Shown here piece after piece: positions 36-22,079 of a stretch of DNA of 64,000 bases. The DNA comes from Candidatus Eiseniibacteriota bacterium (GTDB lineage Bacteria > Eisenbacteria > RBG-16-71-46 > JACRLI01), in assembly GCA_016235265.1 (NCBI GenBank), contig JACRLI010000015.1:133335-197334 (forward strand). Reading direction: 5' to 3'. The notes under the pieces are model-generated. The model was not told the DNA's origin. It did not search any database and saw nothing but the letters and a program-made list of their open reading frames with translations. The position numbers and the translations under genes are program-made. Every line of letters begins with the position of its first letter. Position 1 is the stretch's first letter.

Positions 36-440
36 TCAGGCCTTCAGCCCGCCGAGGCGCTGGTCGGGATCCACCAGGCCCAGGATGCGCACGCCGAAAT
101 TCTCGTCCACCACCACCACTTCCCCGCGGGCCACCAGCTTGCCGTTCACCAGCACGTCCACCGGGTCCCCGGCCGCCTTGTCGAGGCGGATCACGGAGCC
201 CAGTCCCAGCTCCAGGATGCTCTTGATGGGCATCTGGGCGTGACCCAGCTCCACCGAGAGCGGCAGTTCCACGTCCAGCAACAGGTCGATGCTGCGCGGC
301 GCGACCTGGCCGGGGTCCGGCGCCAGTTCCGGCAGCGCCACGGCCTGGGCCACCGCGGGGGTGTCCCCCCCGCCGAAGTCCCCGGCCGGCGCGTCCATCG
401 GCTCCTGCACGGAGTCGGAGGTCTCGAATGCTTCACTCAT
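36..440 (-). CDS. fliN: Flagellar motor switch protein FliN (SpoA domain)
   Basis: 134 aa; C-terminal motif VLVNGKLVARGEVVVVDENFGVRI is the FliN/SpoA signature; immediately follows fliM on the same strand. Confidence 0.9.
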   Translation of the reverse strand: MSEAFETSDSVQEPMDAPAGDFGGGDTPAVAQAVALPELAPDPGQVAPRSIDLLLDVELPLSVELGHAQMPIKSILELGLGSVIRLDKAAGDPVDVLVNGKLVARGEVVVVDENFGVRILGLVDPDQRLGGLKA

Positions 441-450
441 GGCTTGCTCC

Positions 451-1425: not shown

Positions 1426-1452
1426 CGGATTCCCCTGTCGGGCCGCGGGCGC

Positions 1453-2058
1453 CTACTGGCCCACGAACTCCGTGAAGTAGAGGTTGCGCACCGCGATGTC
1501 CTTCATCTTCTCGGACATCTTCGCCTTGATCACGTCGCGGATGCGCTGGCGTCCCTCGGGCGTGTTCAGCTCCGCCACGGTGCACTTGCCGAACTCGGTG
1601 ATCATCAGGTCGCGGAGCACTGCGTCGCGCGCCCCCAGCTCCTCCACTTCCTTCTCGCTGGCGACCTCGAAGGCCAGCCCGACCTTGATGTAGTGGATCT
1701 CGTCCTTGTCGGCCGAGTTGATGACCATGTCCTTCAGCTGGAACATCGGGCCCATGGCGGCCTCGACGGCCTTCTCGGGCTTCTTCTTCGCGCTCGCCTC
1801 GGCGCTCTTCGCCTTCGGCAGCACCACCATGTAGATGATCGCCAGCGAGGCGCCCACGATCACCACCAGGCCGCCCACGAGCCCCAGGATCAGGAACAGC
1901 GGGCCGCCTTTCTTCGCCGGGGCCCCCTTGACCTTGGCCTTGGGGTCCTTGGAATCCTTCGCGTCCTTCGCGCCCTTGGGATCCTTGGCGTCCTTGGGAT
2001 CCTTGGCGTCCTTCGCGTCCGTGGCAGGGGCCGCGGGGGCCTTGGCCTCATCGGCCAT
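1453..2058 (-). CDS. fliL: Flagellar basal-body-associated protein FliL, with N-terminal Lys/Asp repeat
   Basis: 201 aa; single TM helix (LFLILGLVGGLVVIVGASLAIIYMVV) followed by a FliL domain; position between motB and fliM. Confidence 0.85.
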   Translation of the reverse strand: MADEAKAPAAPATDAKDAKDPKDAKDPKGAKDAKDSKDPKAKVKGAPAKKGGPLFLILGLVGGLVVIVGASLAIIYMVVLPKAKSAEASAKKKPEKAVEAAMGPMFQLKDMVINSADKDEIHYIKVGLAFEVASEKEVEELGARDAVLRDLMITEFGKCTVAELNTPEGRQRIRDVIKAKMSEKMKDIAVRNLYFTEFVGQ

Positions 2059-2806
2059 CGTCGCCTCCTGTCGTGGTGGGCGGTGAGACCTCCGCCGGGG
2101 GCGGGGCCGGGGCCGCCAGAATCACGAAGTCCACGCGCCGGTTGCGCGCCTGGCCCTCGAAGCTGTCATTGGCCACCTCGGGCCGGTACTCGGCGTAGCC
2201 GGCCGCCGAGAGCTGTGCCGGCGACATCCGGTGGTTTTCCACCAGGTAGCGGATCACCGCGGTGGCCCGCGCCGACGAAAGCTCCCAGTTCGAGGCGAAT
2301 CGGTCGCTGTGGATGGGTACGTTGTCCGTGTGACCCTCCACCCTCACTTCGTTCGGGTACCGCGCGAGCAGCGTGGCCAGCGTGTCCAGGATGGCCCGCG
2401 CGCCCGGCTGGATCTCCGCCTTCCCCGACTCGAACAGCACCTTGTCGGAGAGCGACAGCACCACGCCCCGGGCGTCCTGCTTGATGCGCAGCTTTCCGGA
2501 GAGGGCCTCGGACTTGAGGTCTGCCTCCATCTTTCCCATAACGATCTTGAGATCGATGCTCTCCGACGGCACGTACGATTGGGTAGGAGCAACGACCGTG
2601 CCCATGTCCCCCTTCAGGAGCAACCCGCCGCCCGAGAGGATCTTGTGCAGCGCCGTGCTGACCGCCCCGAACTTCTTCGCGTCCACCTTCGACATCGAGT
2701 ACATGACGATGAAAAAGGCAAGCAGGAGCGTAATCAGGTCGGCGTAGGTCAGCAGCCAGCGCTCGGAGTTCTCGTGCTCCTCGTGGGACTGGCGGCGCCG
2801 GCTCAT
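2048..2806 (-). CDS. motB: Flagellar motor stator protein MotB (OmpA-like peptidoglycan-binding)
   Basis: 252 aa; N-terminal TM with LLTYADLITLLLAFFIVM motif; C-terminal OmpA domain (NRRVDFVI); 4-nt overlap with motA. Confidence 0.92.
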   Translation of the reverse strand: MSRRRQSHEEHENSERWLLTYADLITLLLAFFIVMYSMSKVDAKKFGAVSTALHKILSGGGLLLKGDMGTVVAPTQSYVPSESIDLKIVMGKMEADLKSEALSGKLRIKQDARGVVLSLSDKVLFESGKAEIQPGARAILDTLATLLARYPNEVRVEGHTDNVPIHSDRFASNWELSSARATAVIRYLVENHRMSPAQLSAAGYAEYRPEVANDSFEGQARNRRVDFVILAAPAPPPAEVSPPTTTGGDDGR

Positions 2807-3579
2807 GCGGCCTTCTTCTGGGGCTCGGTCCGGGCCTTGGGCTCCAGGAAGCTCAGCAGCTTGGTCCGGATGACGCGCGGATTTTCACCGCTCTGGATGG
2901 AAATTACCCCCTCCATGGCCAGTTCCAGGAACAGCTGCTCCTCCTCGTGCCTGACTTTCAACTTATCGCCGATCGGCAGGTAGAACAGGTTGGCCATGCC
3001 CACGCCCCACAGCGTGGCGATGAAGGCGCCGGCGATGGACTCGGCCATCTTGCTCGCGTCGCTGGTGTTGCCCAGGGTGTGGATCAGGCCCAGCACCGTC
3101 CCGATGATGCCCAGGGTCGGCGAGAACCCGCCCAGCTTCCCGAACAGCGTCGCGCCCTCCTTGTGCCGCACCGAGATGAACGCCATCTCCGTTTCCAGGA
3201 TGTTGCGCACCACCGCCGGGTCGGTGCCGTCCACCACCAGTTCCACGGCCTTCTTGAGGAAGGGGTCCTTGATCTTCTTGGCCTCGGACTCCAGGGGCAG
3301 CAACCCGTCGCGGCGGGCCTTCTCGGCCAGCGTCACGATGGTGTTGATCAGCTCCCCCGGGCTCCGCTCGCTGGAGAACATCGCGATCTTCAGGTACGTG
3401 GGCAGGGCCAGCACGGTCTTGAGCGAGGTGGTCATGGTGGACGCCCCGATGGTGCCGCCGATCACCAGCAGCATCGCCGGGATCTGGAGCACCGCGGCGA
3501 CCTCGCCGCCCTCCATGAGGTAGGAGACCAGGATCGAGCCCAGCGCCAGGACGAGTCCGCCGACGGTCGCGAGATCCAT
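2803..3579 (-). CDS. motA: Flagellar motor stator protein MotA
   Basis: 258 aa; four TM segments and MotA/TolQ/ExbB proton-channel motifs (GTVLGLIHTLGN...ATLWGV). Confidence 0.92.
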   Translation of the reverse strand: MDLATVGGLVLALGSILVSYLMEGGEVAAVLQIPAMLLVIGGTIGASTMTTSLKTVLALPTYLKIAMFSSERSPGELINTIVTLAEKARRDGLLPLESEAKKIKDPFLKKAVELVVDGTDPAVVRNILETEMAFISVRHKEGATLFGKLGGFSPTLGIIGTVLGLIHTLGNTSDASKMAESIAGAFIATLWGVGMANLFYLPIGDKLKVRHEEEQLFLELAMEGVISIQSGENPRVIRTKLLSFLEPKARTEPQKKAA

Positions 3580-3582
3580 GAC

Positions 3583-3909
3583 CTAGCGCTCCTCTCCGGA
3601 CCGCGGGGCCGTCGCCCACGGGCCGGGGATGGGCCCCGCCTGCGCGAGCGGCGCGTCCTGCGCCTCGTCCACTTCCTCCCGCCCCGACTCCTCCTCCTCC
3701 TGCCACGACCCCTCCACGACGTAGGGGGCCGCCATCAGGCGTCGGCGAAACTCGATCACCCGGGCCACCACCTCGTCCACCGGCTCGAGCACGTTCATCT
3801 TGTGCCCGGAGATCAGGGTGATGGTGGTGTCCGGCGTGCTTTCGAGCGTCTCGATCAGGTCGGCGTTGAGCACGCAATCCACGCCGTTGAGCTTGGTGAG
3901 ATGAATCAT
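3583..3909 (-). CDS. flbD: Flagellar protein FlbD with acidic C-terminal tail
   Basis: 108 aa; N-terminal 70 aa MIHLTKLNG...IETLES...ISGHKMNVLEPVDEVVARVIEF match the FlbD family; spirochete/Firmicute-type position between flgE and motA; GGAGG RBS. Confidence 0.8.
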   Translation of the reverse strand: MIHLTKLNGVDCVLNADLIETLESTPDTTITLISGHKMNVLEPVDEVVARVIEFRRRLMAAPYVVEGSWQEEEESGREEVDEAQDAPLAQAGPIPGPWATAPRSGEER

Positions 3910-3922
3910 GGTCCTCCGTGAC

Positions 3923-3946
3923 GGGCGGCCCGTCCCCGGGCCGCCC
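3923..3946 (-). other. Perfect 10-bp GC stem-loop (GGGCGGCCCG-tccc-CGGGCCGCCC) between flgE stop and flbD RBS
   Basis: Palindrome read directly from the sequence; no U tract follows it, so it is more likely an mRNA processing/stability element than a terminator. Confidence 0.5.
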
Positions 3947-3960
3947 CGCCAGGCCGCCGG

Positions 3961-5226
3961 CTAGCGCTTGATGTTGACGACTTCGCTCAGCAGCTCGTCG
4001 CCGGTGGTGATCATCCGGGCGTTGGCCTGGAACCCGCGCTGCGCGGTGATCAGGTCGGTGAACTCGGACGCCAGGTCCACGTTGGAGCCTTCCAGCGCGC
4101 CGGCGGAGATGCTGCCGAACGAGCCGGAGCCCGCCGAGCCCACCACCGCGCGGCCGGAGTTGAGCGACTCTTCCCACGAGTTGCCGTTGCCCTTGGTCAG
4201 CCCGGCGTCGTTGATGAAGCGGGCCAGCGCCACCTGGGCCAGCGTGCGCGTGACGCCGTTGGAGAAGCTGCCCACCACGTGACCCTGGCTGTCGATCGAG
4301 GTGCGCACCAGGTTGCCGGCGCTGTAGCCGTCCTGGCTGAACACGAACGCGGTGGTGTCGCCGGCGCTCGAGGTCATGGTGCCGAACGGGTTGTAGGCCG
4401 GCGACGTGGTGGTCGCCAGCTTGACCACGATGTCGGCCGCCCCGTTCGCCGGGCTGGGGGCGAGCGTGAGGTCGGTCACCGAGCTGGTGTTGAGCGTGCC
4501 GTCGGTGTTGAAGGTCAGCGCGCCGGCGCCGCCGGTGGCGGTGTAGCCCGTCGGCGGGGTCGGGATGGTCACGTTCCACACCAGCGGGCTGGTGGCATCC
4601 TTGGTCAGGCGCAGCGTCAGCGAGTGCTTGTTGCCGCGCGAGTCGTACACGGTGGTGGTGACGTCCACGTTGGTTCCCGCCGCCGCGCCGGCGTCCAGGT
4701 TGCCGTGGACTTCCATCTGCGTGGTCGGCTTGGCGGAGGCGGTGGCGTCGGTGGAGATGCGCAGGTCGGACAGCGCGGTGCCCGGCGCGATGGTGCCGGC
4801 GGCGTCGGCCATGTAGCCCTGCACCACCTTGCCGGTGCCCGGATCCACCAGGCGGCCCTGGGCGTCGAAGCTGAACGCGCCGGCGCGGGTGTACTGCTGC
4901 CCGCCGCCGCTGCCCAGGATGAAGAAGCCGTCGCCCTGGATGGCCAGGTCGGTGCCCAGGCCGGTGTTCTCCAGCGTGCCCTGGCCGAAGAAGTTGTCGA
5001 TGCCGGCCACGCCGGTGCCCATCCCGATCTGCATCGGGTTGGTGCCGCCCTGGGTGCCGCTGCCCGGCGAGGCCGCCTGCAGCAGCTGGGAGAACTGCTC
5101 GGCGAAGCGCGCCCGACCGGTCTTGAAGCCGATGGTGTTGATGTTGGCGATGTTGTTACCGATCACGTCCATCATGGTCTGGTGGGCCCGCAGGCCGGTG
5201 ACTCCGGAGAACATGGCTCGCAGCAT
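3961..5226 (-). CDS. flgE: Flagellar hook protein FlgE
   Basis: 421 aa from ATG at 5226, which is preceded by AAAGGAG. The ORF-track start at 5256 would place this RBS inside the gene. N-terminal MLRAMFSGVTGLRAHQTMMDVIGNNIANINTIGFK and C-terminal DLASEFTDLITAQRGFQANARMITTGDELL are flagellar rod/hook family signatures. Confidence 0.92.
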   Translation of the reverse strand: MLRAMFSGVTGLRAHQTMMDVIGNNIANINTIGFKTGRARFAEQFSQLLQAASPGSGTQGGTNPMQIGMGTGVAGIDNFFGQGTLENTGLGTDLAIQGDGFFILGSGGGQQYTRAGAFSFDAQGRLVDPGTGKVVQGYMADAAGTIAPGTALSDLRISTDATASAKPTTQMEVHGNLDAGAAAGTNVDVTTTVYDSRGNKHSLTLRLTKDATSPLVWNVTIPTPPTGYTATGGAGALTFNTDGTLNTSSVTDLTLAPSPANGAADIVVKLATTTSPAYNPFGTMTSSAGDTTAFVFSQDGYSAGNLVRTSIDSQGHVVGSFSNGVTRTLAQVALARFINDAGLTKGNGNSWEESLNSGRAVVGSAGSGSFGSISAGALEGSNVDLASEFTDLITAQRGFQANARMITTGDELLSEVVNIKR

Positions 5227-5310
5227 GGAAGTCTCCTTTGCTTTCAGGTTCCGCACCGGGCGCCGCCCCCAGGGGCGGGCCCGCGATTTGAGGTCGATTC
5301 CAACGCCCCC

Positions 5311-5994
5311 TTACTTCTTCACCGGGGCTTCCACGATCTGGGTCACGTCGGACAGGCTCACGGAGCGGTCGCCCACCAGCAGGTAGGTCTGACCGTGACT
5401 GAACTTCACCCCGGTCACGCGTCCGCGCACCAGCGTCTCCGCGGGCACCGCCGCGCCCTTGGCGTCGGTGGCGGTGACCTTGAAGGTGTACTCGCCGGCC
5501 GGGGCCGGCTGGCCGTCCGCGCCGTTGCCGTCCCAGGCCACGGTGTGCGAACCCTCGCCCATGCTGCCGGACTTCACCGTGGCCACCACCTTGCCGCTGG
5601 AGTCCACCACCTCCACCTTCACGCTGCCCGCGGCGCCGGAGAGGTTGAAGCCCAGGTCCACCTTGCCGCCGGCGGAGAGGGTGAACTGGTCGCCCCGGGC
5701 CTCCACGTCGCGGCCGATGAGCCCGGTGGTGAGCGAATTGTTCACCGACTGGTTGAGCAGAATGCTGGTGGCCATGCCGTCGTTCATGTTCTGCATCTGT
5801 TCCAGCGAAGAGAACTGCGCCAGCTGCGCCACGAACGCCTCGTTCTGGATCGGCTGCATGGGGTCCTGGTTGCGCAGCTGCGCGGTGAGCAGGAGCAGGA
5901 AGTCCTCCTTGCCCAGCGCGCTGGCGCCGCTCGCGCCCATGGTGGCGCCCAGGCTCGCGGCGGTGTTGGTGCCGTGAATCGCGTTCGTGCTCAT
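5311..5994 (-). CDS. flgD: Flagellar hook assembly/capping protein FlgD
   Basis: 227 aa from ATG at 5994 (GGGAGGTG RBS). FlgD N domain (FLLLLTAQLRNQDPMQP) plus Ig-like/FlgD Tudor C-terminal domain. The ORF-track N-terminal extension is Arg-rich junk. Confidence 0.9.
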   Translation of the reverse strand: MSTNAIHGTNTAASLGATMGASGASALGKEDFLLLLTAQLRNQDPMQPIQNEAFVAQLAQFSSLEQMQNMNDGMATSILLNQSVNNSLTTGLIGRDVEARGDQFTLSAGGKVDLGFNLSGAAGSVKVEVVDSSGKVVATVKSGSMGEGSHTVAWDGNGADGQPAPAGEYTFKVTATDAKGAAVPAETLVRGRVTGVKFSHGQTYLLVGDRSVSLSDVTQIVEAPVKK

Positions 5995-6031
5995 GACGTG
6001 CTCACCTCCCGTGCGGGCCCCGATGCCGGGG

Positions 6032-7918
6032 TCACGCGTACAAGTCCAGCCGGCCTTCGCGCGCCGCGCGGGGCGCGCCGGGTGCCGGAGCGATCTCCGT
6101 GGTCGTGGTCGCAGCCCGCGGGACTGCCGGGCGCGTGCGCGCCGGCGCCGCATCCCGGCGGCCGTGGCCCTCGAAACTCCCCCCCACTTCCACCCTGAGC
6201 GAAGTCACGCCGCGGGCGTCGGCCAGCGCGCGCTCCAATTCCGGAAGATGCTGCCGGATGGCCTCGCGGGCCTCCGGGCTGTCCGCCGCGAACTGCGCCT
6301 GCAAGTGGCCGTTCTCCATGCGCAGCCGGATCTCCACCTTGCCCAGCGATTCGGGGTGCAGCCGCACCGTGGCCTCGCTGGAACCCGGGGCGTGGAACTT
6401 GATCGCGATCTGGCTCACCAGCGTGTCCACGATCCGGCGCGCGGCGGGCGCGCCGGCGTGGGACTTCGACACCGGGGTCGCAGCCTCCTCGCGGGACCGG
6501 GCGCCCGGCGCGGCGGCCGTGGCGGAGTCGGCTCTCACCGCGGTCACCGCGTCGGCGGATCCACTCGAAACCGTGGTCGCAACATCCTGTGTCTTCATCA
6601 GTTGAGCGCGAGGCTCCGCTCCCGCCGGTGTCGTGCTGGCCGCGGGCTCGGAGGCGCCGGAACGGGGGTTTCCGCCCTCCTGCGTCAAAGCCTGTTCCCC
6701 TCCTCCCTGGCGCTGGGCCTCCACCACCGGGTGGGCGGGAGTGCCCGCGCCCCGGGCGGACTCGTGCGCCTGTGCACCGCGCGGGCCCGACGCCTCCGGG
6801 GCGGCGGACGCGGCAGCCTGTGGCGCGCCCGCGGCGGCTTCCGGCGCGGACGCGGCGCGGACGCCCCGCGGACCGGCTTCGCCGGCGCGGGCCGGGGCGT
6901 CGGCATTCGCCGTGCCTGCGGCATTCGGTTCCTGGTTCGGACGGGCGGCCTCCGGCTGCGCCTCGGGCGCGCCCGGGGCGTTGCCCTTCGCGTCCTGCGG
7001 CGTCACCGGCAGCGTGCCCGGCACACCTGCGCCGCTGGCGTTCGAGCGCGACGAAGTCGCCGGGGCCGAAGCTCCGGCGTCCTGGCCCGGCGCCGCGGCC
7101 GCGGTGTCCCCGGGCTGCGCCCCCGCGGCTTCCGCCTCCGCCTCTGCGCCTGCCCGGACCTGCGCCGCAACCGCGGTTGCCTGGCCCCAATCCGACTTCG
7201 ATGGCCCGGTCACCACCACGCGCGCGGCGGCCCCCAGCAGTTCCTTCAGGATCGCCCCCGCGGGGTCCCCGGCGTCTCCGTCCGGGCCGACGGCCGCGGG
7301 CAGGCCGGACCCGGCGGGCGCCGACGGGGTGCCCGTCGCGGCGGATGATTCGGGCTGCGGCGTCGTGCCCGGCGCGCCGGGGGACGCGCTCGCCGCACCC
7401 GGTCCGCCTTGCGGCGCGGCCGACTGCGGCTGCGGCACGCGGGCGGGTTCCCCACCGCCCGTCCCGTCCACTCCGACCTTCGATGCGCGCGGCGCAGTCC
7501 GTGCCCCGTCGGGGCCGGGGGTGCCGCCGGTCGCGCCGATCGGGGCGGCGCGCTCCGTCCGTGCGTCCTCGTCCCCCGCGGGCCGGTCCTCGCCGTCCGC
7601 ACCGCGGGCCGGGCGCGCCGGGGTGCTGACGTCGCGGGAATCGCGGGGCGCTGCGGCGTGTGCGGCGCGGGGCGCGTCGGTGTCGTCCCTCCGCCCGGTG
7701 CGCGGCGACGGGGTCGGCGCGCAGTCGCGGCGCGGGTCCGCGGCGCGGGCGCGGTCCCGCCCGCCCGGGGGCGCCGCCTGCGGGCGCGCGGCCAGGTCGA
7801 GCAGCGCCGCGAATGCAGCGCCCGGCCCGGCCTGCGGCGGGGCCGCGGGCCGGGGCTCGAACGGGTCGGTGCGCCGTGCCGCGGGGCGCGGGCGCGGAGA
7901 CTGGACGGATTCGCTCAC
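6032..7918 (-). CDS. fliK: Flagellar hook-length control protein FliK (Pro/Ala-rich)
   Basis: C-terminal FliK domain (VRLHPESLGKVEIRLRMENGHLQAQFAADSPEAREAIRQHLPELERALADAG); long low-complexity Pro/Ala N-region typical of FliK; GTG start overlaps the ylxF-like stop (GTGA). The rest of the 1102-aa ORF upstream is a shadow frame. Confidence 0.7.
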   Translation of the reverse strand: MSESVQSPRPRPAARRTDPFEPRPAAPPQAGPGAAFAALLDLAARPQAAPPGGRDRARAADPRRDCAPTPSPRTGRRDDTDAPRAAHAAAPRDSRDVSTPARPARGADGEDRPAGDEDARTERAAPIGATGGTPGPDGARTAPRASKVGVDGTGGGEPARVPQPQSAAPQGGPGAASASPGAPGTTPQPESSAATGTPSAPAGSGLPAAVGPDGDAGDPAGAILKELLGAAARVVVTGPSKSDWGQATAVAAQVRAGAEAEAEAAGAQPGDTAAAAPGQDAGASAPATSSRSNASGAGVPGTLPVTPQDAKGNAPGAPEAQPEAARPNQEPNAAGTANADAPARAGEAGPRGVRAASAPEAAAGAPQAAASAAPEASGPRGAQAHESARGAGTPAHPVVEAQRQGGGEQALTQEGGNPRSGASEPAASTTPAGAEPRAQLMKTQDVATTVSSGSADAVTAVRADSATAAAPGARSREEAATPVSKSHAGAPAARRIVDTLVSQIAIKFHAPGSSEATVRLHPESLGKVEIRLRMENGHLQAQFAADSPEAREAIRQHLPELERALADARGVTSLRVEVGGSFEGHGRRDAAPARTRPAVPRAATTTTEIAPAPGAPRAAREGRLDLYA

Positions 7919-8460
7919 GGGCGGCTGCCCTCCGGACCGGTCATGCCGGCCCACATCTGGGTGATGCGCACCGAGCGCTCCGGCCCGAACGCCTCCAGCA
8001 GGCGCGCGGCCTGCGGGGCCTTGAGCTGGCGCACGATGGCCATGGCGGTGACGTCGTCGAGCTGGCGCAGGATGCGCGCGGCGTCCTCGGCCTTCATCTC
8101 CGCGTAGATCTTCGCCAGCGCCTTGTCCTGGGCCTGCTGCTCCGGGGTGCGGGCCGCGGGCACGGCCTTGGCGACGGCGTCGCGCCGCGCGGCGTCGGCG
8201 TCCGGCTCCCCGGCGCCCGGCGCGGGGGCGGCAGCCACGGCGGCAGTCGGGACCGGCGCGGCGGCGGCGCTCTCCGCGGGCGCGGCGGCCCCGCCGGGTG
8301 CGGCAGGCGGCTCCGCCGGCGCCTTCGCCGGCGCGGTGCGCGACTGCGCCAGGCGCTGCTTCACCAGCGGCAGCAGGTGCTGCTGGGCCACACCGGTGGC
8401 GAACAGCAGCCCGGTGAAGATCCCCAGGAACGCGACCAGGAATATGGCGACCCACTTCAT
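7915..8460 (-). CDS. ylxF: YlxF/MotE-like flagellar protein (N-terminal TM plus MgtE_N-like domain)
   Basis: 181 aa; TM helix (WVAIFLVAFLGIFTGLLFA), Ala/Pro linker, C-terminal KIYAEMKAEDAARILRQLDDVTAMAIVRQLKAPQAARLLEAF resembling the MgtE_N domain of B. subtilis YlxF; conserved position between fliJ and fliK. Confidence 0.65.
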   Translation of the reverse strand: MKWVAIFLVAFLGIFTGLLFATGVAQQHLLPLVKQRLAQSRTAPAKAPAEPPAAPGGAAAPAESAAAAPVPTAAVAAAPAPGAGEPDADAARRDAVAKAVPAARTPEQQAQDKALAKIYAEMKAEDAARILRQLDDVTAMAIVRQLKAPQAARLLEAFGPERSVRITQMWAGMTGPEGSRP

Positions 8461-8466
8461 GGCGTC

Positions 8467-8913
8467 CTACACCCTCTCCAGGGACATCCGGCGCGCGTAG
8501 CGGCCGGCGTTCCTGTCGTTCAGCTCCCGCTCCTCGGCCCGGACCGTGTCCAGCCGGACCTCCTCGGCGATTCTCTCCTTGAGCCTCTCCAGCACCCGCA
8601 GCTGCTGGCGGGCCGCGGCCACCGCGTCCCGGGCCAGGGTCTCGGCCTGGTGCGCCCCCCGGAGCCGCGTCGCGGCCGCCCCACGGGCCTGCCGGTGTGC
8701 GTCGGCCAGGTCGCTCCAGGTGCGCACCGCCGCCGGATCCGAAATCTCCGCGCGCAGCGCCTGCAACGTGCGGTTTTCCTCGAGCTGCAGCCGCGCCACC
8801 TCCCGCTCCACCGCGGCGCGCGCCCCCACGGCCCGCGCCAGCGCCATCTGGCGGTCCTTCAGGGCCCGCGCCCGGAGGCGCTCCAGGCCGTGCAGCCGGT
8901 AGCGGCGGGTCAT
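8467..8913 (-). CDS. fliJ: Flagellar export chaperone FliJ
   Basis: 148 aa coiled-coil protein; position directly after fliI; FliJ-like heptad-rich sequence. Confidence 0.8.
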   Translation of the reverse strand: MTRRYRLHGLERLRARALKDRQMALARAVGARAAVEREVARLQLEENRTLQALRAEISDPAAVRTWSDLADAHRQARGAAATRLRGAHQAETLARDAVAAARQQLRVLERLKERIAEEVRLDTVRAEERELNDRNAGRYARRMSLERV

Positions 8914-8919
8914 GGCGGC

Positions 8920-10227
8920 CTAGGCCACCGCGGCGCGCAGGTGCGCCAGGGTGCCGTGAAACGGTTCCAGTTCGCCGGGGGCCTGCTGCAGGAACTGCTG
9001 CAGGCGCGGCCGCCGCTCCAGCGCGGCGTCGATGTCGGCGTTGCTGCCCCGGGCGTAGGCGCCGATCTGCACCAGGTCCTCCGCCTCGCGGTAGGTGGCC
9101 AGGTGCCGGCGGCCCTCCTGCGCCCACTTGCGGTGCTCCGGGTCCGCCACGTCGTGCATCACGCGGCTGACACTCTCCAGCACGTCGATGGCCGGGTAGT
9201 GCCCCGCGGACGCCAGGCGCCGCGAGAGCACCACGTGGCCGTCCAGCACCGAGCGCGCGGAGTCGGCGATGGGGTCGTTCATGTCGTCCTGTTCCACCAG
9301 CACCGTGTAGATGCCGGTCACCGAGCCGTCCGCGCCGCAACCCGAGCGCTCCAGGAGCTGCGGCATCAGTGCGAATACGCTCGGGGTGTAGCCGCGGGCC
9401 GTGGGCGGCTCGCCGGTGGCCAGGCCCACCTCGCGCTGCGCCATCGCCACGCGGGTGAGCGAGTCCATCAGCAGCAGCACCTGCGCGCCGCGGTCGCGGA
9501 AATACTCGGCGATGGTGGCGGCCAGCAGCGCGCCCTTCACCCGCACCAGGGCGGGCTGGTCGCTGGTCACCGTCACCACCACGGAGCGCTTCAGCCCCTC
9601 GGGGCCCAGGTCGCGCTCCAGGAAGTCGCGCACTTCGCGGCCGCGCTCGCCGATCAGCGCGATCACCGTGACCTCGGCCTCGGTGCCGCGCGCCATCATC
9701 CCCAGCAGCATGCTCTTGCCCACGCCCGAGCCCGAGAAGATGCCCATGCGCTGCCCGCGTCCCAGGGTCAGGAATCCGTCCACCGCGCGCACCCCGGACG
9801 CCAGCGGGCGCAGCACGCGGGCGCGTTTCAGCGGGTGCGGCGGCGCGGCATGCAGCGGGCGCATCTCGCCCGGAGGCAGGGGGCCCCCGTCGTCCATGGG
9901 AACGCCCATTCCGTCCAGGACCCGTCCCAGCATCCCCGGGCCCACCGGCGCCGACAGCGGCTGGCGCGTGCGCACCACCTCACTGCCCGGGTGCACCCCG
10001 CGCAGGTCGCCCAGCGGCATCAACAGCGCGCGGTCGCCCCGGAAGCCCACCACCTCGGCGCGCGCGGGCGGCTCGGTGCGGGAGGTGCAGATCTCGCACA
10101 GCTCGCCCACCGAGGCGGACAGCCCGGTGGCTTCCACCACCAGGCCCACCACCTGCGCCACCCGGCCGGTCACCCGGATGGAGTCGAAGCGGTTCACCCG
10201 CTCCAGCCTCGGTTCAAGCGTCGGCAT
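8920..10227 (-). CDS. fliI: Flagellum-specific ATP synthase FliI
   Basis: 435 aa; Walker A GSGVGKS, Walker B LLLMDSLTR, F1/T3SS-ATPase family. Confidence 0.95.
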   Translation of the reverse strand: MPTLEPRLERVNRFDSIRVTGRVAQVVGLVVEATGLSASVGELCEICTSRTEPPARAEVVGFRGDRALLMPLGDLRGVHPGSEVVRTRQPLSAPVGPGMLGRVLDGMGVPMDDGGPLPPGEMRPLHAAPPHPLKRARVLRPLASGVRAVDGFLTLGRGQRMGIFSGSGVGKSMLLGMMARGTEAEVTVIALIGERGREVRDFLERDLGPEGLKRSVVVTVTSDQPALVRVKGALLAATIAEYFRDRGAQVLLLMDSLTRVAMAQREVGLATGEPPTARGYTPSVFALMPQLLERSGCGADGSVTGIYTVLVEQDDMNDPIADSARSVLDGHVVLSRRLASAGHYPAIDVLESVSRVMHDVADPEHRKWAQEGRRHLATYREAEDLVQIGAYARGSNADIDAALERRPRLQQFLQQAPGELEPFHGTLAHLRAAVA

Positions 10228-10870
10228 CGGTCCCGGGCCTCTCTCCCAGCAGCATCCGTTCGATCTCCACCAGTTGCGTGGTCCACCGCGCGTCCACCGC
10301 CCCGTGCAGCGTGGTCACCAGCGCGCCGCCGCGCGCCACGCGGCGGTCCTCGATCACCTCGAAGTGCTCCACGCCCTCCACGATCCGCAGCCACGCCTCG
10401 CGCCGGGAGCGGACCGCTTCCAGGTCCTCCGGGTTCACGCGCAGCGTGATGCGGTCGCGCGCGGTGACCCGCTTGAGCGCCTCGGTGGTCATGCGCTCGG
10501 CCATGGTGCGGTCCTCCTCCGACAGCCGGCCCACGACCCTTCCCGCCACCGCCAGGGCCAGGCGCACCGCGTCGGTCTCCAGCTCGGATGTCATGCGCTC
10601 GCGGTGCTCCCACACCTCGCGGACCACCAGATCCAGCGTGGTGCGCAGTCCCTCGACCTCGGCCTCGCCCTGCGCGCGGCCCTCCACCACACCGTCCTCG
10701 AAGCCCCTGCGGTAGGCCGCCTCGCCCTGCGCCTCCGCCGACGGCTGGATGCGGACGTGCCGGGCGGGCTGGGGATAGGGCGCGAACACGGCCACCGGGG
10801 CGTCCTGCCCCGGGCCTTCCGCCGGCTCCGTGCGCACCGCGCCGCGGATGACGCTAGACGACGACTTCAT
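10214..10870 (-). CDS. fliH: Flagellar assembly protein FliH
   Basis: 218 aa; FliH/YscL-type C-terminal domain; overlaps fliI by 14 nt and fliG by 17 nt. Confidence 0.8.
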   Translation of the reverse strand: MKSSSSVIRGAVRTEPAEGPGQDAPVAVFAPYPQPARHVRIQPSAEAQGEAAYRRGFEDGVVEGRAQGEAEVEGLRTTLDLVVREVWEHRERMTSELETDAVRLALAVAGRVVGRLSEEDRTMAERMTTEALKRVTARDRITLRVNPEDLEAVRSRREAWLRIVEGVEHFEVIEDRRVARGGALVTTLHGAVDARWTTQLVEIERMLLGERPGTDADA

Positions 10871-11888
10871 CCTGCTTGCCTCCGCGCCCGGCGATCACGA
10901 TCTCGCCCTGCTCCTCGAGGGCGCGCACGGCGTCGATGACGTGCCGCTGGGCCTCCTCGAAGGTCTTGAGCTTCACCGGGCCCATCCTGTCGCGCTCCTC
11001 CTTGAGGATCTCCACCGCGCGCTCGGACATGTTGCGGAAGATCAGGTTCTTCAGCTCCTCGCTGGCGGCCTTGAGGGCCAGCGCCAGCTCCTTGGTGTCC
11101 ACTTCCTTGAGCAGCCGCTGGATGCCGCGGTCGTCGATGCGGCCGATGTCCTCGAACAGGAACATGAGGTTCTTCACCTGCTGCGACACCGCCGGGTTCT
11201 CCCGATCCAGGGTGGAGAGGATGTTGCGCTCCACGCCGCGGTCCAGCCGCTTCAGCAGGTCGGCCACCACCTGCACGCCCCCCACCTCGCTGGCCGACTG
11301 GCTCTCCACCGAGACCAGGTTCTGGCTCAGCACGCTCTCGATCTCGCTGATGGTGTCGGAGCTGATGTGGTCCATGGTCGCCAGGCGCGCCACGATTTCC
11401 GGCTGCGTCTCGGGCGGCAGCATGCTCAGCACCTCCGCCGCCTGCGGCACCCGCAGGTGCGCCAGGATCAGCGCGATGGTCTGCGGGTGCTCGTTGCGGA
11501 TGAAGTTCACCAGGTGCGCGGTCTCGAAGTTGCGCAGCATCTCGAAGCCGGTGGTTTCCACCGAGCCCTGCACCCGGTTCACGATCTCGCGCGCGCGGTC
11601 CCCGCCGAGGGCGCGCTCCAGCACCTGCTGGGCGTACGGGAGGCCGCCCTCCACGAAGTTCTCGCGGGTCATGGCCTCCTTGCCCACCTGCTCGAAGATC
11701 TGGTGCCGCAGCTCGCTGGGCACGTCGCCCAGCCGCGCGATCTCCAGCGTGAGCGACTCGATGTCCGCGGGCGGCATCTCCTTGAGCACCCGGGCGGAGT
11801 CCTCGGGTCCCAGGCTCACCATCAGCACGGCGGCGCGCTGCGCCCCGGTGAGCTGGGAGATCGAGGTGGTCTTCAGTTGCGGCTTCAA
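10854..11888 (-). CDS. fliG: Flagellar motor switch protein FliG
   Basis: 344 aa; FliG N/M/C domains with the conserved charged torque helix; ATGA overlap with fliF. Confidence 0.93.
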   Translation of the reverse strand: MKPQLKTTSISQLTGAQRAAVLMVSLGPEDSARVLKEMPPADIESLTLEIARLGDVPSELRHQIFEQVGKEAMTRENFVEGGLPYAQQVLERALGGDRAREIVNRVQGSVETTGFEMLRNFETAHLVNFIRNEHPQTIALILAHLRVPQAAEVLSMLPPETQPEIVARLATMDHISSDTISEIESVLSQNLVSVESQSASEVGGVQVVADLLKRLDRGVERNILSTLDRENPAVSQQVKNLMFLFEDIGRIDDRGIQRLLKEVDTKELALALKAASEELKNLIFRNMSERAVEILKEERDRMGPVKLKTFEEAQRHVIDAVRALEEQGEIVIAGRGGKQDEVVV

Positions 11889-13345
11889 TTCGGGTTCTCC
11901 TCGCGCATCCAGGCCCGGACCAGGGTGGCGACCTCCTGCGGCCGCTCACGGGCGAGCCGCGCCATGCGCTCCTCCATCCGCCGCCGCTGGATCTGCACCG
12001 GGTCCTGCTGGCCGTGGAGCTCCTCCTCCGGGGGCGGCGCCTGCGTCAGGCTGCCGAGGCCCTTCATGGCGGAGCGCAGGAAGAGCAGCAGCAGCAGGCC
12101 CACCACCACGTAGCCCACCTTGCCGCCGACCTTGCTCACCACGCCGAAGGTCTGGGCCTTCTTCATGTCCTTGGCCACCGCGTCCATCACCGAGGTGTCG
12201 AACGCCACGTTGGCCACTTCCAGCTCGTCCCCGCGCTTGGCGTCGATGCCCACGGCGTTGCGCACGATGTTGCGGATCTTGGTCAGCTCCTCCGGGCTGC
12301 GCGGCTGGTACTTGCGCGCGCCCTTGGCGTCCACCTGGTAGGCGCCGTCCACCATCACCGCCACCGACAGCTTGCGGATGCCGCCCGAAGCGCTGGCGAT
12401 GTGCTCCACGCTCTTGGACACCTCGTAGTTGACCACCGAGCTGGTGCTGCGCTCCCCGCCCCCCTGGCCCTGGGTGTCGTTCTTCTCCTCGCTGCGCACC
12501 ACCTGGTTGTCCGGGTCGTACTTCTCCACGGTGCGCTCGATCTTGTCGAAGTCCAGCTGCGCGCTGACCTGCACCACCGCGCGGTTGCTGCCCAGCACCT
12601 CCTCGAGCATGCCCTGCACCTTGTGGGACAGGTAGTTCTCCACGTTCTGCTGCAGTTCCAGCTGGTCGTTCGACAGCCCCGCGATGGAGTTGGCGGAGTG
12701 ACCCTTGGAGAGGACGTTGCCGTTGGTGTCGATCACCGTCACGTCCTCGGGCTTGAGCCCCTCCACGCCGCTGGCCACCAGCCGGGTGATGCCGTGGACC
12801 TGGCCCTGGTTCAGGCGGCCGCGGAGCTTGAGCACCACCGAGGCGGTCGGCACCGCGCGCTCCTCGGTGTAGAGGTGCGGCTCGGGCAGCACCAGGTGGA
12901 CGCGGGCCTGCTCCACCTCCTCGATGCCCTGGATGGTGCGCGTGAGCTCGCCCTCCAGGGCGCGCTGGTAGTTGAGCTTCTGCACGAAGTCGGTCATCCC
13001 GAAGTTGTTCTTGTCGAACACCTCGTAGCCCACCCCACCGGACTGCGGCAGCCCCGCGGTGGCCAGGTCGAGGCGCGTCTCGTAAACCTGCGCGGCCGGC
13101 ACCAGCACCGTGGCGCCGCCGTCCCGCAGCTGGAAGGGCACCTTCTTGGTGCGGAGCTTCTCCACGATCCTGCCGCCGTCCTCGGACTTCAGACCGGTGT
13201 AGAGCACCTGGTAGTCGGGGCGGCCGGCCCACGTGGCCACCAGCGCGCCGAGGGCCACCACGGCCAGCAGCGAAAGGACCACCGCCATGCGCTGGTTCGC
13301 GGACAACCGTTTCCAGGTCCCGAGGAGTCGATCCATTCCAGTCAC
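11885..13345 (-). CDS. fliF: Flagellar MS-ring protein FliF
   Basis: 486 aa; N-terminal TM, YscJ/FliF ring-building motifs, C-terminal TM plus FliG-binding tail. Confidence 0.9.
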   Translation of the reverse strand: MTGMDRLLGTWKRLSANQRMAVVLSLLAVVALGALVATWAGRPDYQVLYTGLKSEDGGRIVEKLRTKKVPFQLRDGGATVLVPAAQVYETRLDLATAGLPQSGGVGYEVFDKNNFGMTDFVQKLNYQRALEGELTRTIQGIEEVEQARVHLVLPEPHLYTEERAVPTASVVLKLRGRLNQGQVHGITRLVASGVEGLKPEDVTVIDTNGNVLSKGHSANSIAGLSNDQLELQQNVENYLSHKVQGMLEEVLGSNRAVVQVSAQLDFDKIERTVEKYDPDNQVVRSEEKNDTQGQGGGERSTSSVVNYEVSKSVEHIASASGGIRKLSVAVMVDGAYQVDAKGARKYQPRSPEELTKIRNIVRNAVGIDAKRGDELEVANVAFDTSVMDAVAKDMKKAQTFGVVSKVGGKVGYVVVGLLLLLFLRSAMKGLGSLTQAPPPEEELHGQQDPVQIQRRRMEERMARLARERPQEVATLVRAWMREENPN

Positions 13346-13421
13346 CCTTCATCGTTGTTCGGTCCGACGTCCATGTCCGTCCGGGGACTGTCCCCGGGCC
13401 CGGCCCGCTCCGCGGGCCTTC

Positions 13422-13736
13422 CTACAGCGGCATCCGCATCACTTCCTGGTACGCCGACACCAGTTTGTCGCGCATCTGCAGCACCAGGTCGAAGGCGATC
13501 TGGGCCTCCTGCTGCGCCAGCACCACGCGGTGCAGGTCCACCGGCCGGCCCTCCACCAGGGCCTGGTTCATCGCGTCCGAGCGCTGCGAGAGCGCGTTGG
13601 CCGTGTCCACGGCCTGGGTCAGCAGCTGCTGGAACGGCACCTGCGCCGGACCGGCGCCGGCGGCGGGGGTGGCGGCGGGCGAGGTCCCCTCGAGGGGCCG
13701 CCCGACCTCGATCGGGTTCAGGCGAATGGTCTCCAT
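13422..13736 (-). CDS. fliE: Flagellar hook-basal body complex protein FliE
   Basis: 104 aa from ATG at 13736 (ATGA overlap with flgC stop); FliE family C-terminus (IAFDLVLQMRDKLVSAYQEVMRMPL). Confidence 0.88.
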   Translation of the reverse strand: METIRLNPIEVGRPLEGTSPAATPAAGAGPAQVPFQQLLTQAVDTANALSQRSDAMNQALVEGRPVDLHRVVLAQQEAQIAFDLVLQMRDKLVSAYQEVMRMPL

Positions 13737-14233
13737 CAGCGGCCGATCTCCAGCGTCTTGTTGGCCATGTCCCGCGCCACCGTCAGCGCGGTCACGTTGG
13801 CCTCGTAGGCCCGCGAAGCGGCCATGAGGTCCATCATCTCGGTCACCGGGTTCACGTTCGGCATCCGCACGTAGCCCTTCTCGTCGGCGTCCGGGTGGCC
13901 CGGGTCGTACACCATGGGCAGTTCCGAGGGGTCGTCCTGCACCTCGCCCACCTCCACCCCGGCGGGCAGCACCTGGTAGCGCTCGGCGGCCACCTGGCCC
14001 GGGCCGGTCTTCATGCCGGCGGCCGGGGACGCGGGGCCTTCGGGCACCAGGATGCGCGGGCCGTCGAGCGCGGCGCGGAAGTCGGCCACCTGGCGGCGGT
14101 ACGGCCCGCCCTGGGGCGTCCTGGTCACGCTGGCGTTGGCGATGTTGTTGGCGATCACGTTCAGCCGGAGCCGCTGCGCGGCGAGCCCCGACGCGCTGAT
14201 CTCGAGACTGTTGAAGATGCCCATGTCCGGCAT
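13736..14233 (-). CDS. flgC: Flagellar basal-body rod protein FlgC
   Basis: 165 aa; N-terminal FNSLEISASGLAAQRLRLNVIANNIANASVTRTP and C-terminal rod-family motif. Confidence 0.92.
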   Translation of the reverse strand: MPDMGIFNSLEISASGLAAQRLRLNVIANNIANASVTRTPQGGPYRRQVADFRAALDGPRILVPEGPASPAAGMKTGPGQVAAERYQVLPAGVEVGEVQDDPSELPMVYDPGHPDADEKGYVRMPNVNPVTEMMDLMAASRAYEANVTALTVARDMANKTLEIGR

Positions 14234-14315
14234 GGTGCTTCCTCCGGGACGGGACCGCGCGGCGCGGCTCCCAGGATGCGCGCGCCCCGCAGCGGGGCGC
14301 GCTCACGAAACCTGC

Positions 14316-14726
14316 CTACCGGTCGACGATGGCCTGTCGGATCATCTTGTACTTCGCGGAGACCAGCTGGGCGATCGCGCCGTGGCGCAGCACGGTCTTC
14401 TGCAGCTCCACCATTTCGCGCTCGATGTCCACGTTGTTCACGCCGCTGCGCAAATCCGGGGAGGTGTCCACCTCCACCCGCGGCGACACGTGCCGCGCCC
14501 CGCGCGAGGCTTCCAGGTGCGCCGGGCCGTCCCCGGCCAGCTGCAGACGGTGCGGCTGCCGGGTGCGATCCTGGAGCAGCTCCTCGAACGCCACGTGCTT
14601 CGCCTGGTAGCCGGGAGTGCCCACGTTGGCGATGTTGTCCGCGGTCACCTTCTGGCGCAGCGCGGCCGCGTCGAGGCCCTGCCGCAGTCCCGGGATGCTT
14701 TCTCCGAAGAGGATCTTGTCCAGCAC
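14316..14726 (-). CDS. flgB: Flagellar basal-body rod protein FlgB
   Basis: Start re-assigned to GTG at 14726 (GGAGG 5 nt upstream). This gives MLDKILFGESIPGLRQGLDAAALRQKVTADNIANVGTPGYQAK, a classical FlgB N-terminus (compare E. coli MLDRL...). The ORF-track start at 14765 lies upstream of the sigma54 promoter core. Confidence 0.85.
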   Translation of the reverse strand: MLDKILFGESIPGLRQGLDAAALRQKVTADNIANVGTPGYQAKHVAFEELLQDRTRQPHRLQLAGDGPAHLEASRGARHVSPRVEVDTSPDLRSGVNNVDIEREMVELQKTVLRHGAIAQLVSAKYKMIRQAIVDR

Positions 14727-14756
14727 GTTCGCCTCCAGTCCGTGGAGGGGCAAAAC

Positions 14757-14771
14757 GCAATCCACGTGCCA
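14757..14771 (-). promoter_or_regulatory. Sigma54 (RpoN) -24/-12 promoter for the flgB...fliN operon
   Basis: Minus strand reads TGGCAC-GTGGA-TTGC (exact consensus TGGCAC-N5-TTGC); predicted TSS about 14745, 19 nt upstream of the flgB GTG. Confidence 0.75.
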
Positions 14772-14819: not shown

Positions 14820-16231
<1,412 letters not shown>

Positions 16232-16235
<4 letters not shown>

Positions 16236-17380
16236 GCGTCCTCCGGAGGCAGGGACGGCAGGGTCAGGGTGAAGCAGGCCCCGTGCGGCTTCCGGTCCCG
16301 GTACGCGAGGGCGCCGCCGTGCGACTGCGCGGCCTTGGCGGCCAGCGCCAGGCCCAACCCGGTGCCGCGCGCCTTGCCGGTGATGAACGGTTCGAACATC
16401 CGGTCGCGCACGGCGGGATCCACGCCGGGGCCGGAGTCGGAAATCGTGAGCCGGTGCGCCTCGCCCGGGATCAGGGCCACCCGCACCCGGCCGCCCCGGG
16501 GCGAGGCTTCCACCGCGTTGCGAGCCACGTTGACCACGGCCGCCTGCAGGCGCGTCGCGTCCCCGCGGGTGAATGCGGCCCCCGGTCGCTTCCACACCAG
16601 GGCCACGCCGCGCTCGCGCGCCAGCGAACCGGTCTGCACCAGCGCGGATTCCACCACCGCGCGCAGGTCCACGGGGTCCTTGCGCGGCTCGAAGGGCCGC
16701 GTGAATTCCAGGAATTCGGAGACCAGGTCCTCCAGGGCGTGGATGCCGCAGCGGATCTTCTCCGCGTAGGCCCGGCGGGGGTCGGCCGGTTCCAGCCCGC
16801 GCTCCAGCAGGTCCAGGAAGCCGGACATGCCGCCCAGGGGGTTGCGAATCTCGTGTGCCGCCACCGCGGCCACCCGTCCCAGCGCCGCCAGCGAGCGGGC
16901 GCCCTCCAGCTCCTTGCGCAGCCGCACGTCCTCGGTGCGGTCGGTCAGGATCTCGACGGCCCCCAGCGGCTCGCCGCGCACGCCGCGCACCCAGGACACC
17001 TCGGAGTCGAGGTGACCGGAATCCGGTCCCAGGTCCAGCGCCTCGCTTCGGGGTCCGCCGGCGCGCAGGCGGTCCGCGGGCGAGGGGTGGCCGGGCCACA
17101 ACTCGGCGTACGCGTGCCCCCGCGCGGCCTCGCGGCCCACACCCAGCATGCGCTCCGCGGCGTGGTTCATGCTGCGCACGCGCCCGGAGGAGTCGCTCCA
17201 CACCAGGCCCAGCGGCAGGGACTCCATCACCCGGCCGACCCACAGGTGGAAGCCCTCGGACTCCTCGCGCACGCGACGCAACCGGTCGCGCAGCACGTAC
17301 AGTTCGGCCTCGTCCTGGGCAAGGCGCAGTTCCAGCTCCGCCTGCCCGGTCCAGTCGGTCCCCGGGTGCAGCACGGTCAT
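16232..17380 (-). CDS. PAS-domain sensor histidine kinase (HisKA plus HATPase_c)
   Basis: 382 aa from ATG at 17380 (ATGA overlap with upstream gene). H-box AAVAAHEIRNPLGGMSGFLDLL; G1/G2 boxes DSGPGVDPAVRDRMFEPFITGKARGTGLGLALA; cytoplasmic, no TM. Confidence 0.88.
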
Positions 17381-20505: not shown

Positions 20506-20520
20506 GCAATGCCTGTGCCA
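20506..20520 (-). promoter_or_regulatory. Sigma54 -24/-12 promoter upstream of the receiver-cheR-cheY-sigma_r4-AMIN/TPR-HK-RR operon
   Basis: Minus strand reads TGGCAC-AGGCA-TTGC; the in-frame stop of the receiver ORF lies just downstream, so this is the leader. Confidence 0.7.

Positions 20521-20666: not shown

Positions 20667-22053
<1,387 letters not shown>

Positions 22054-22079
<26 letters not shown>

Follow-up and report, generated by a model that had tools for sequence, protein, structure and literature searches.

Flagellum-associated two-component systems that activate the sigma-54 promoters of rod and hook genes have been described in several bacteria: FlrBC in Vibrio cholerae, FleSR in Pseudomonas aeruginosa and FlgSR in Campylobacter jejuni and Helicobacter pylori (PMC7064773). 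In these species, the genes for the MS ring, the rotor and the export gate belong to an earlier class, and it is the assembly of their products that triggers the kinase. We analysed a stretch of 64,000 nucleotides, called the window hereafter, from an uncultured Candidatus Eiseniibacteriota bacterium (GenBank assembly GCA_016235265.1, contig JACRLI010000015.1, positions 133,335 to 197,334). It holds nearly the whole flagellar regulon, and our subject is the predicted sigma-54 (RpoN) promoter in front of flgB, the first gene of the main basal-body operon. As in the FlrBC, FleSR and FlgSR species, a cytoplasmic kinase (with a PAS domain, as in FlrB and FleS) and an NtrC-type REC-AAA+-HTH regulator are encoded in the flagellar cluster; a sigma-54 core precedes flgB and the flgF-type rod genes, the promoters of late genes are of the sigma-28 type and FlgM is present. 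The window departs from these systems in two respects. The regulator, named here EBP1 (for enhancer-binding protein; its kinase is HK1, for histidine kinase), is not an ortholog of FlrC, FleR or FlgR by curated models and stands nearer to NtrC4 and NtrC1 of Aquifex. And fliF, fliG, fliH, fliI, fliJ, fliM and fliN, instead of forming an earlier class, share the sigma-54 cluster of flgB, with no recognisable promoter of their own.

The gene order is almost identical to that of the Borrelia burgdorferi flgB operon and of the Bacillus subtilis fla/che operon, which are transcribed from housekeeping promoters (sigma-70/sigma-A). Unlike them, the operon of the window appears to be headed by an enhancer-dependent sigma-54 promoter, which would mean that the ancient flgB-to-fliN order of spirochetes and Firmicutes can sit behind a promoter of this kind. 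In Geobacter sulfurreducens, an RpoN promoter is predicted before flgB (GSU0407), and RpoN promoters were verified at fliL (GSU0420) and flgJ (PMC2725144). There as here, the RpoN promoter heads a similarly ordered cluster (flgB to fliN/flhB), FlhDC is missing and other flagellar operons are also of the sigma-54 type; the window differs in that no internal fliL sigma-54 promoter is evident, in its regulator, and in its host, a member of an FCB-related candidate phylum and not of the Desulfuromonadota. Concerning enhancers, PMC3333781 gives CCCGGCA-N5-TGCCGGG for the site of Caulobacter FlbD (ftr) and GGCA...TGCC for that of DVU1063, a flagellar activator of Desulfovibrio. Both regulators have atypical receivers and no cognate kinase, FlbD working with FliX. 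Control of flagellar genes by a two-component system and sigma-54 is already known, and the general understanding of flagellar regulation is left unchanged; what is added is the uncultured lineage and the in-gene candidate enhancer, and in this candidate-phylum bacterium the main flagellar operon can now be annotated with confidence as to its promoter, start codon and enhancer.

Table 1. Features of the window discussed in the text
Feature	Position	Strand	Remarks
Sigma-54 -24/-12 core of flgB, TGGCACGTGGATTGC	14757..14771	minus	exact match; GG 14770-14769, GC 14758-14757
Extended conserved promoter block, TGGCACGTnnnTTGCGnTTTGC	14750..14771	minus	invariant in 4 aligned sequences, flanks scrambled
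Predicted transcription start	14743..14747	minus	~12 nt past the -12 C at 14757; from sigma-54 geometry
Shine-Dalgarno sequence GGAGG	14732..14736	minus	5 nt before GTG 14726-14724; GGAG kept in L001, L081 and L002
flgB coding sequence, 136 aa	14316..14726	minus	GTG start at 14726; Pfam Flg_bb_rod, TIGR01396
flgB-flgC-fliE-fliF-fliG-fliH-fliI-fliJ-X-fliK-flgD-flgE-flbD-motA-motB-fliL-fliM-fliN	36..14726	minus	18 co-directional genes, Pfam
Candidate enhancer dyad A, CGCA-AAACT-TGCC	14890..14902	minus	centre ~-151 from predicted start; in EBP1 coding tail
Candidate enhancer dyad B, GGCA-GAAAT-TGCC	14868..14880	minus	centre ~-129 from predicted start; in EBP1 coding tail
EBP1, NtrC-class sigma-54 activator, 471 aa	14820..16235	minus	Pfam REC + AAA+ + HTH_8, GAFTGA
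HK1, PAS-HisKA-HATPase histidine kinase	16232..17380	minus	Pfam; overlaps EBP1 start by 4 nt
EBP2, REC-AAA+(GAFTGA)-HTH_8 activator	20667..22079	minus	preceded by kinase HK2 (~23820-22054)
Exact sigma-54 core (REC operon)	20506..20520	minus	directly after EBP2 gene; heads REC-CheR-CheY-sigma70r4-TPR-HK1-EBP1
Exact sigma-54 core (glycosyltransferase operon)	44162..44176	minus	after csrA; heads glycosyltransferase/sugar-epimerase genes upstream of flagellin
Exact sigma-54 core (flgF operon)	53311..53325	minus	heads flgF-flgG-flgA-flgI-flgJ-flgN-flgK-flgL-fliW-csrA
Perfect dyad GGCA-GAATT-TGCC, GGCAGAATTTGCC	53483..53495	minus	intergenic, ~190 nt upstream of predicted flgF start
Sigma-28 (FliA)-type promoter, TAAAGTTCCTGCGAGTAATGCCGAAAA	32785..32811	minus	before flagellin gene (32667-31804); one mismatch
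Sigma-28 (FliA)-type promoter, TCAAGTTTTGCCGTCCGCGGCCGATAC	47874..47900	minus	before flgN

The features are listed in Table 1. The site in front of flgB matches the sigma-54 consensus TGGCAC-N5-TTGC at 10 positions out of 10 and its GG and GC are exactly 10 nt apart; on the minus strand, TGGCAC occupies 14771-14766 and TTGC 14760-14757, on either side of the spacer GTGGA. This core had been pointed out in the initial annotation, together with the 30 nt which separate TTGC from the GTG start of flgB, and the coordinates bear out both statements. The same annotation placed the end of an activator gene 49 nt upstream: the adjacency holds, but the distance from the TAA stop codon (14822-14820) to TGGCAC is 48 nt. 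Exact cores are found 4 times in the window, which has a GC content of 72.5%, versus 0.13 expected from dinucleotide-preserving shuffles (n = 100), none of which reached 4. When up to one mismatch is tolerated, the count is 6 (the 4 exact ones included) versus about 4.8 expected, i.e. not above chance; the enrichment therefore resides in the exact cores, since the relaxed search adds only two sites. All four exact cores are intergenic, lie on the coding strand about 30-70 nt before proposed start codons, and are each directly 5' of a flagellar or regulatory operon. From these motifs and the comparisons given below, we estimate at about 0.8 the probability that the 14771-14757 site is the working sigma-54 promoter of the main flagellar basal-body operon, the model proposed for its activator being part of what is estimated.

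The conservation of the site was assessed on 160 flgB loci from genomes and metagenomes, amounting to 2.7 million strand-nt; the comparison was built on FlgB, so that it covers the flgB promoter region. The closest FlgB sequences come from uncultured bacteria: L001 and L081 (71% identity), L002 (60%) and L004 (45%), the last two being Candidatus Eisenbacteria metagenome-assembled genomes and L081 the sole further close relative found by the metagenome scan. A myxobacterial (Anaeromyxobacter) origin, suggested by the high GC content and an MglA-like gene, was discarded because FlgB and the adjacent activator both have their closest relatives among Eisenbacteria-type metagenome-assembled genomes. 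An exact search of the large assembly index retrieved neither the 136-aa nor the 149-aa version of FlgB. The next ones belong to the Latescibacterota, Zixibacteria, Ignavibacteria and Armatimonadota, with many Firmicutes. An exact core is present 5' of flgB in eight related loci (L001, L002, L004, L013, L055, L081, L092 and L093), among which L013 is from the Latescibacterota and L055 from the Zixibacteria. Over the 160 loci there are 12 exact cores in total and all 12 are upstream of flgB on its strand, 8 of them less than 300 nt away, for a background of 0.0013 per 300 nt. The variant TGGCAT is found in cores upstream of flgB in 7 further loci; neither the exact core nor this variant was detected in the Firmicute and Chloroflexi flgB loci of the set. 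Relative to the flgB start, the core is at -45 in the window, L001 and L081, and at -66 in L002. When these four sequences are aligned, the background is scrambled and four conserved islands stand out: one in the 3' tail of the activator gene, the activator stop codon, the promoter block TGGCACGTnnnTTGCGnTTTGC, and GGAG with the start codon.

Two observations were made along the way. Locus L001 (DATKKS010000203.1) is labelled Candidatus Saccharimonadales, yet it has 72% GC, carries flgB with the same activator and promoter, and is nearly identical to the metagenome contig L081 in the flgB region; because of this GC content and of the flagellar genes, its label is probably a binning error, the true source being an Eisenbacteria-like organism. 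Three loci that are more distant, from a Melioribacteraceae member and two metagenome contigs (L058:3491, L152:3694 and L153:2056), have an exact core on the flgB strand at about 510-520 nt before the gene, which suggests that a small extra gene lies between promoter and flgB in these lineages.

The position of the FlgB start decides whether the core is outside or inside the coding sequence. The longest open reading frame begins at GTG 14765, a codon created by the promoter spacer itself (CAC-GTG-GAT) and without ribosome-binding site; the initial annotation had read it as an ATG, mistakenly, and had rightly moved the start to the GTG that follows GGAGG. Translation from GTG 14726 reads (M)LDKILFGESIPGLRQGLDAAALRQKVTADNIANVGTPGY. 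The product scores 93.9 bits with the FlgB equivalog TIGR01396 (cutoff 59.05), its residues 11-133 covering positions 5-130 of the 131 of the profile, and the Pfam Flg_bb_rod domain spans residues 16-41, which puts the rod motif at a normal distance from the start. An ATG stands exactly at the GTG-14726 position in L001, L081, L002, L004 and L013. In L004 and L013, a stop codon is found 2-3 codons upstream of that ATG, so a longer FlgB N-terminus is impossible there. It could be argued that the core arose by chance, or that it belongs to an extended flgB gene initiated at GTG 14765, as the frame is indeed open from 14819 and contains this GTG. But the core is enriched and conserved, no Shine-Dalgarno sequence precedes 14765, the orthologs have their ATG at the 14726 position with, in L004 and L013, stops just upstream, the 13 additional residues show no conservation at the protein level (L002 carries 21 more nt in this segment), and coverage of the FlgB profile already begins at residue 4-11. 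The comparative data thus reject this reading, to which we grant hardly any probability. The re-assignment of the FlgB start to GTG 14726 is correct on these sequence comparisons, and what is likely a 13-codon over-extension due to longest-open-reading-frame gene calling is thereby corrected.

The activator-tail island corresponds to the C-terminal codons of EBP1. It reads GCGCAAAACTTGCCGCCCGGGGCGGCAGAAATTGCC and holds two dyads, A and B, 22 bp apart. Their offsets from the core, -131 and -109, are identical in the window, L001, L081 and L002, and dyad A is invariant in these sequences. Single dyads occur at -122 in L004, -136 in L013 and -131 in L055, where the gene upstream is not that of an activator. 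The density of dyads is 2.0 per kb upstream of cores versus 0.24 per kb in the background. The codons used in the block are rare ones: CAA (3.4% of its synonymous set) and TTG (2.6%) in dyad A, GCA (3.1%), GAA (17.7%) and ATT (4.7%) in dyad B, for a product of about 2e-7. The relatives retain the A/T pattern (GAT TTT, AAT TTT) in spite of differing amino acids. Rare codons and retained A/T pattern together point to the DNA, rather than the protein, as the target of selection; the dyads would be an example of a regulatory site constraining codon choice inside a gene.

The core of the dyads, GGCA-N5-TGCC, equals the motif of FlbD and DVU1063 as given in PMC3333781, a match that is independent in that it was found after the motif had been derived. 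The dyads also share with the Caulobacter ftr and Desulfovibrio vulgaris sites an A/T-rich centre and a location some 100-190 nt ahead of the sigma-54 promoters of flagellar genes. In its strict form the motif has 2 copies in the window, GGCAGAAATTGCC at 14880-14868 and GGCAGAATTTGCC at 53495-53483, the latter before the flgF operon. The positions fall within the range of about 80-200 nt expected of upstream activator sequences, binding being putative; inspection by eye of the segment between dyads and core brought out no convincing integration host factor site. The dyad pair located in the activator's own gene is thus a candidate regulatory enhancer, new here, with support coming from the orthologs and from the match to the literature. 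In several FCB-related candidate phyla, flgB is likewise preceded by a FlbD-like GGCA-N5-TGCC core.

The initial annotation had also recognised a sigma-54 enhancer-binding response regulator gene at 14820-16235 next to flgB, and Pfam finds in it complete REC, AAA+ and HTH domains with GAFTGA. EBP1 has a normal phospho-acceptor pocket (D9, D10, D52, T81 and K102), its Walker A motif is at 171 and its GAFTGA at 218, and orthologs are encoded directly upstream of flgB in L001, L081 and L002. HK1 is cytoplasmic: it has no hydrophobic segment, the maximum 19-aa Kyte-Doolittle value being 0.84. Unlike FlbD and DVU1063, EBP1 therefore combines a conventional receiver with an adjacent kinase. It remains below every curated cutoff of NCBIfam, with 373 bits for the FlbD equivalog (NF050807, cutoff 750) and 276 for FlgR (cutoff 750); its best NCBIfam matches, to generic AtoC/NtrC models, are below cutoff too, and the ranking of PDB structures places NtrC4 and NtrC1 of Aquifex, LuxO and ZraR ahead of FlrC and FleQ. 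Identification as a named ortholog (FlbD, FlgR, FlrC, FleQ, AtoC, NtrC or ZraR) was accordingly rejected, as no cutoff was reached.

This lack of a name leaves room for another activator. The flgB promoter could be sigma-54 dependent but activated by EBP2 (22079-20667), or by an activator encoded elsewhere, EBP1 having other targets: two complete GAFTGA activators are encoded within 8 kb, neither at an equivalog cutoff, and L004, L013 and L055 carry dyad and core without an adjacent activator gene. We nevertheless find this quite unlikely, since the dyads are inside the last 30 codons of the EBP1 gene, an arrangement retained in L001, L081 and L002, and since the EBP2 gene abuts another sigma-54 core, which has degenerate dyads and a different palindrome. 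That palindrome, GCTTGC-CGC-GCAAGC, is perfect; it is found at 20562-20576 on the minus strand, about 45-55 nt upstream of the REC-operon core, does not resemble the GGCA-N5-TGCC motif and may be bound by another regulator.

With EBP1 as the activator, the following sequence of events can be proposed. Sigma-54 RNA polymerase would bind the -24 GG / -12 GC core as a closed complex. HK1, the co-transcribed cytoplasmic PAS kinase, would presumably phosphorylate EBP1 on D52. We infer that EBP1 would then bind the two GGCA-N5-TGCC-type dyads (at about -151 and -129) within the final 30 codons of its own gene, reach the promoter by looping and open it by ATP hydrolysis through its GAFTGA loop. The geometry of sigma-54 promoters is fixed, RNA synthesis beginning about 12 nt after the -12 C; transcription is predicted on that basis to begin near 14745, leaving a leader of about 20 nt (19-21 nt) with GGAGG, from which FlgB would be translated at GTG 14726. 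The transcript would run through flgC to fliN, and probably on to export-gate genes past the window. The flgF operon, for distal rod and rings, also has a promoter of this type and a perfect copy of the dyad in front of it. The whole would form a sigma-54-early, sigma-28-late hierarchy: sigma-28-type promoters precede flagellin and flgN, and the cluster has the usual arrangement, with sigma-54 for the early and middle genes and sigma-28 for the late ones.

The extent of the transcript was examined gene by gene. The initial annotation had described 18 genes with near-zero gaps from flgB to fliN. Pfam confirms the 18 genes, gene X between fliJ and fliK being small and MgtE_N-like, but the gaps are near zero for most junctions only: in nt, the 17 junctions are 82, -1, 76, -4, -17, -14, 6, 6, -4, 37, 84, 51, 3, -4, -11, 27 and 10, and four of them (flgB/flgC, fliE/fliF, flgD/flgE and flgE/flbD) are gaps of 51-84 nt. 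No terminator-like or sigma-70-like site was seen on the operon strand over positions 1-17700, and no operon gap contains a sigma-54 core of at least 9/10 or a sigma-28-like site. A single transcript of about 14.7 kb, from flgB to fliN, is the simplest reading and a plausible one as far as the sequence goes. This length is a lower bound, because the window ends 35 nt past fliN without fliPQR or flhAB; fliPQR, flhAB, flhFG and fliA were not found in the 64 kb. In operons of this gene order (Borrelia flgB, Bacillus fla/che), fliPQR-flhBA-flhFG normally follow fliN, and the operon probably extends past the window edge.

Alternatively, the cluster might be divided among several mRNAs, with promoters or processing sites located in the gaps of 51-84 nt, and so not be a single transcription unit. 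All four of these junctions contain GC-rich hairpins, the primer-extension-verified fliL promoter of Geobacter is a sigma-54 promoter inside a similarly ordered cluster (PMC2725144), and a 9/10 core (GGGCAC-N5-TTGC) is present at 2603-2589 inside motB, 531 nt before fliL. Against these stand the gaps themselves, devoid of sigma-54 cores of at least 9/10 and of sigma-28-like sites, and the numbers: one-mismatch cores are no commoner than chance (6, with the 4 exact ones, versus 4.8 expected), on which ground the motB core was dismissed as a fliL promoter, and the hairpins have z-scores of -1.9 to +0.1 versus shuffled sequence and are not conserved, the flgB-flgC gap shrinking to 15-47 nt in relatives. 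Hairpins that are not stronger than composition predicts, nor conserved, were not retained as attenuators or terminators. Several mRNAs are possible, if on the improbable side.

At the other end, the flgB core could be real but secondary, an internal booster at 14771 within a transcript of more than 20 kb reading through from the core at 20520-20506, which lies 5.8 kb upstream of that of flgB. All genes from 20500 to 36 are co-directional and no canonical terminator separates the EBP1 stop codon (14820) from the core; the 48-nt spacer has no other structure than a 7-bp hairpin (14788-14772), without T-tract (z = -2.5) and not conserved in L001. However, read-through needs no full enhancer/promoter unit, and core and dyads are conserved in L004, L013 and L055, where the activator operon is not upstream of flgB. 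It is because the unit is kept without that operon that we consider the flgB promoter able to work alone and read-through somewhat unlikely as the main source of the mRNA.

Several points weigh against the proposal that the 14771-14757 site is an EBP1-activated sigma-54 promoter heading the whole operon. EBP1 and the dyads are paired by synteny alone, because there are two activator genes in the vicinity and curated cutoffs identify neither product as an ortholog of FlbD, FlrC, FleR or FlgR. The count of strict dyads in the window (2 versus 0.13 expected) is circular; it was not relied on, as the pattern was defined after seeing the sites. No strict dyad was found upstream of the glycosyltransferase promoter, and the REC-operon promoter has only degenerate ones, GGAA-GCATT-TTCC at 20629-20617 and GGCA-AAACC-GGCC at 20609-20597; the idea that the strict dyad marks every one of the four promoters was given up on these grounds. 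The base directly 3' of TTGC in the flgB core is a G and not the consensus A/T. The rpoN gene is absent among the annotated open reading frames of the window, so that the presence of sigma-54 in the genome is deduced from the two GAFTGA activators and the four cores. Finally, promoters of an unfamiliar type could be concealed in the four gaps of 51-84 nt.

A two-tier sigma-54 relay, without early class dependent on a housekeeping sigma factor, can be imagined: HK2/EBP2 would fire the promoter at 20520-20506, leading to synthesis of a chemotaxis-like REC/CheR/CheY module and of HK1/EBP1, and EBP1 would activate the flgB and flgF promoters through the FlbD-type dyads. Such a relay may cover the whole early and middle programme (MS ring, C ring, export ATPase, rod, hook and stator). 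Were it true, the finished MS ring and export gate could not be the signal for HK1, since the EBP1-dependent promoter stands in front of fliF, fliG and the export genes themselves; HK1 would have to sense another signal than FlrB, FleS and FlgS do. We put this scheme forward tentatively, as possible rather than probable.

A few oddities were noted in the operon headed by the 20520-20506 core. The receiver gene after it (20435-20500, minus strand) has no in-frame ATG, GTG or TTG before the receiver domain; the likeliest start is CTG 20437-20435, preceded by GGGGG, failing which there would be an assembly frameshift. Inside the same REC-CheR-CheY-TPR-HK1-EBP1 operon, a small protein made of sigma-70 region 4 only (18501-18899, minus strand), with weak FliA/ECF-like matches, could be an anti-sigma-like or decoy factor.

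The 44176-44162 core heads genes running towards flagellin, fliS, fliD, flaG and flgM. They are glycosyltransferase-TPR fusion genes (GT2/GT1) of very large size and one epimerase gene, occupy about 11 kb (down to around 32938) and end just before flagellin; the 44162-32938 stretch is probably an island for flagellin glycosylation controlled by sigma-54. The predicted transcription start of this operon almost coincides with an in-frame ATG (44151), and the mRNA could be leaderless. FlgM is encoded at 29312-28722, and there is no full fliA in the window. In the flgF operon, FlgH (L-ring) was not found, nor anywhere else in the window: the segment of about 750 nt between flgA and the FlgI domain (50280-51033, minus strand) contains no Pfam domain in the frame tested. 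A 9/10 sigma-54-like core, TGGCACGAATGGTGC, is located at 61080-61094 on the minus strand, about 110 nt upstream of a gene for a MglA/Arf-like small GTPase; as said, one-mismatch sites are not enriched.

FliK (6032-7918, minus strand), in the flgB operon, is 628 aa long and, outside its C-terminal Flg_hook domain, extremely rich in Ala, Pro, Gly and Arg; the GC content at third codon positions of its gene is too atypical for detection by simple frame-based gene finding. Lastly, two genes for GAF-SpoIIE (PP2C-type) phosphatases and an HDOD-domain gene flank the flagellar operons (26440-28660, minus strand; 53475-55841, plus strand), one of the phosphatase genes being divergent from the flgF promoter; they may provide motility inputs of the partner-switching type or related to cyclic di-GMP.

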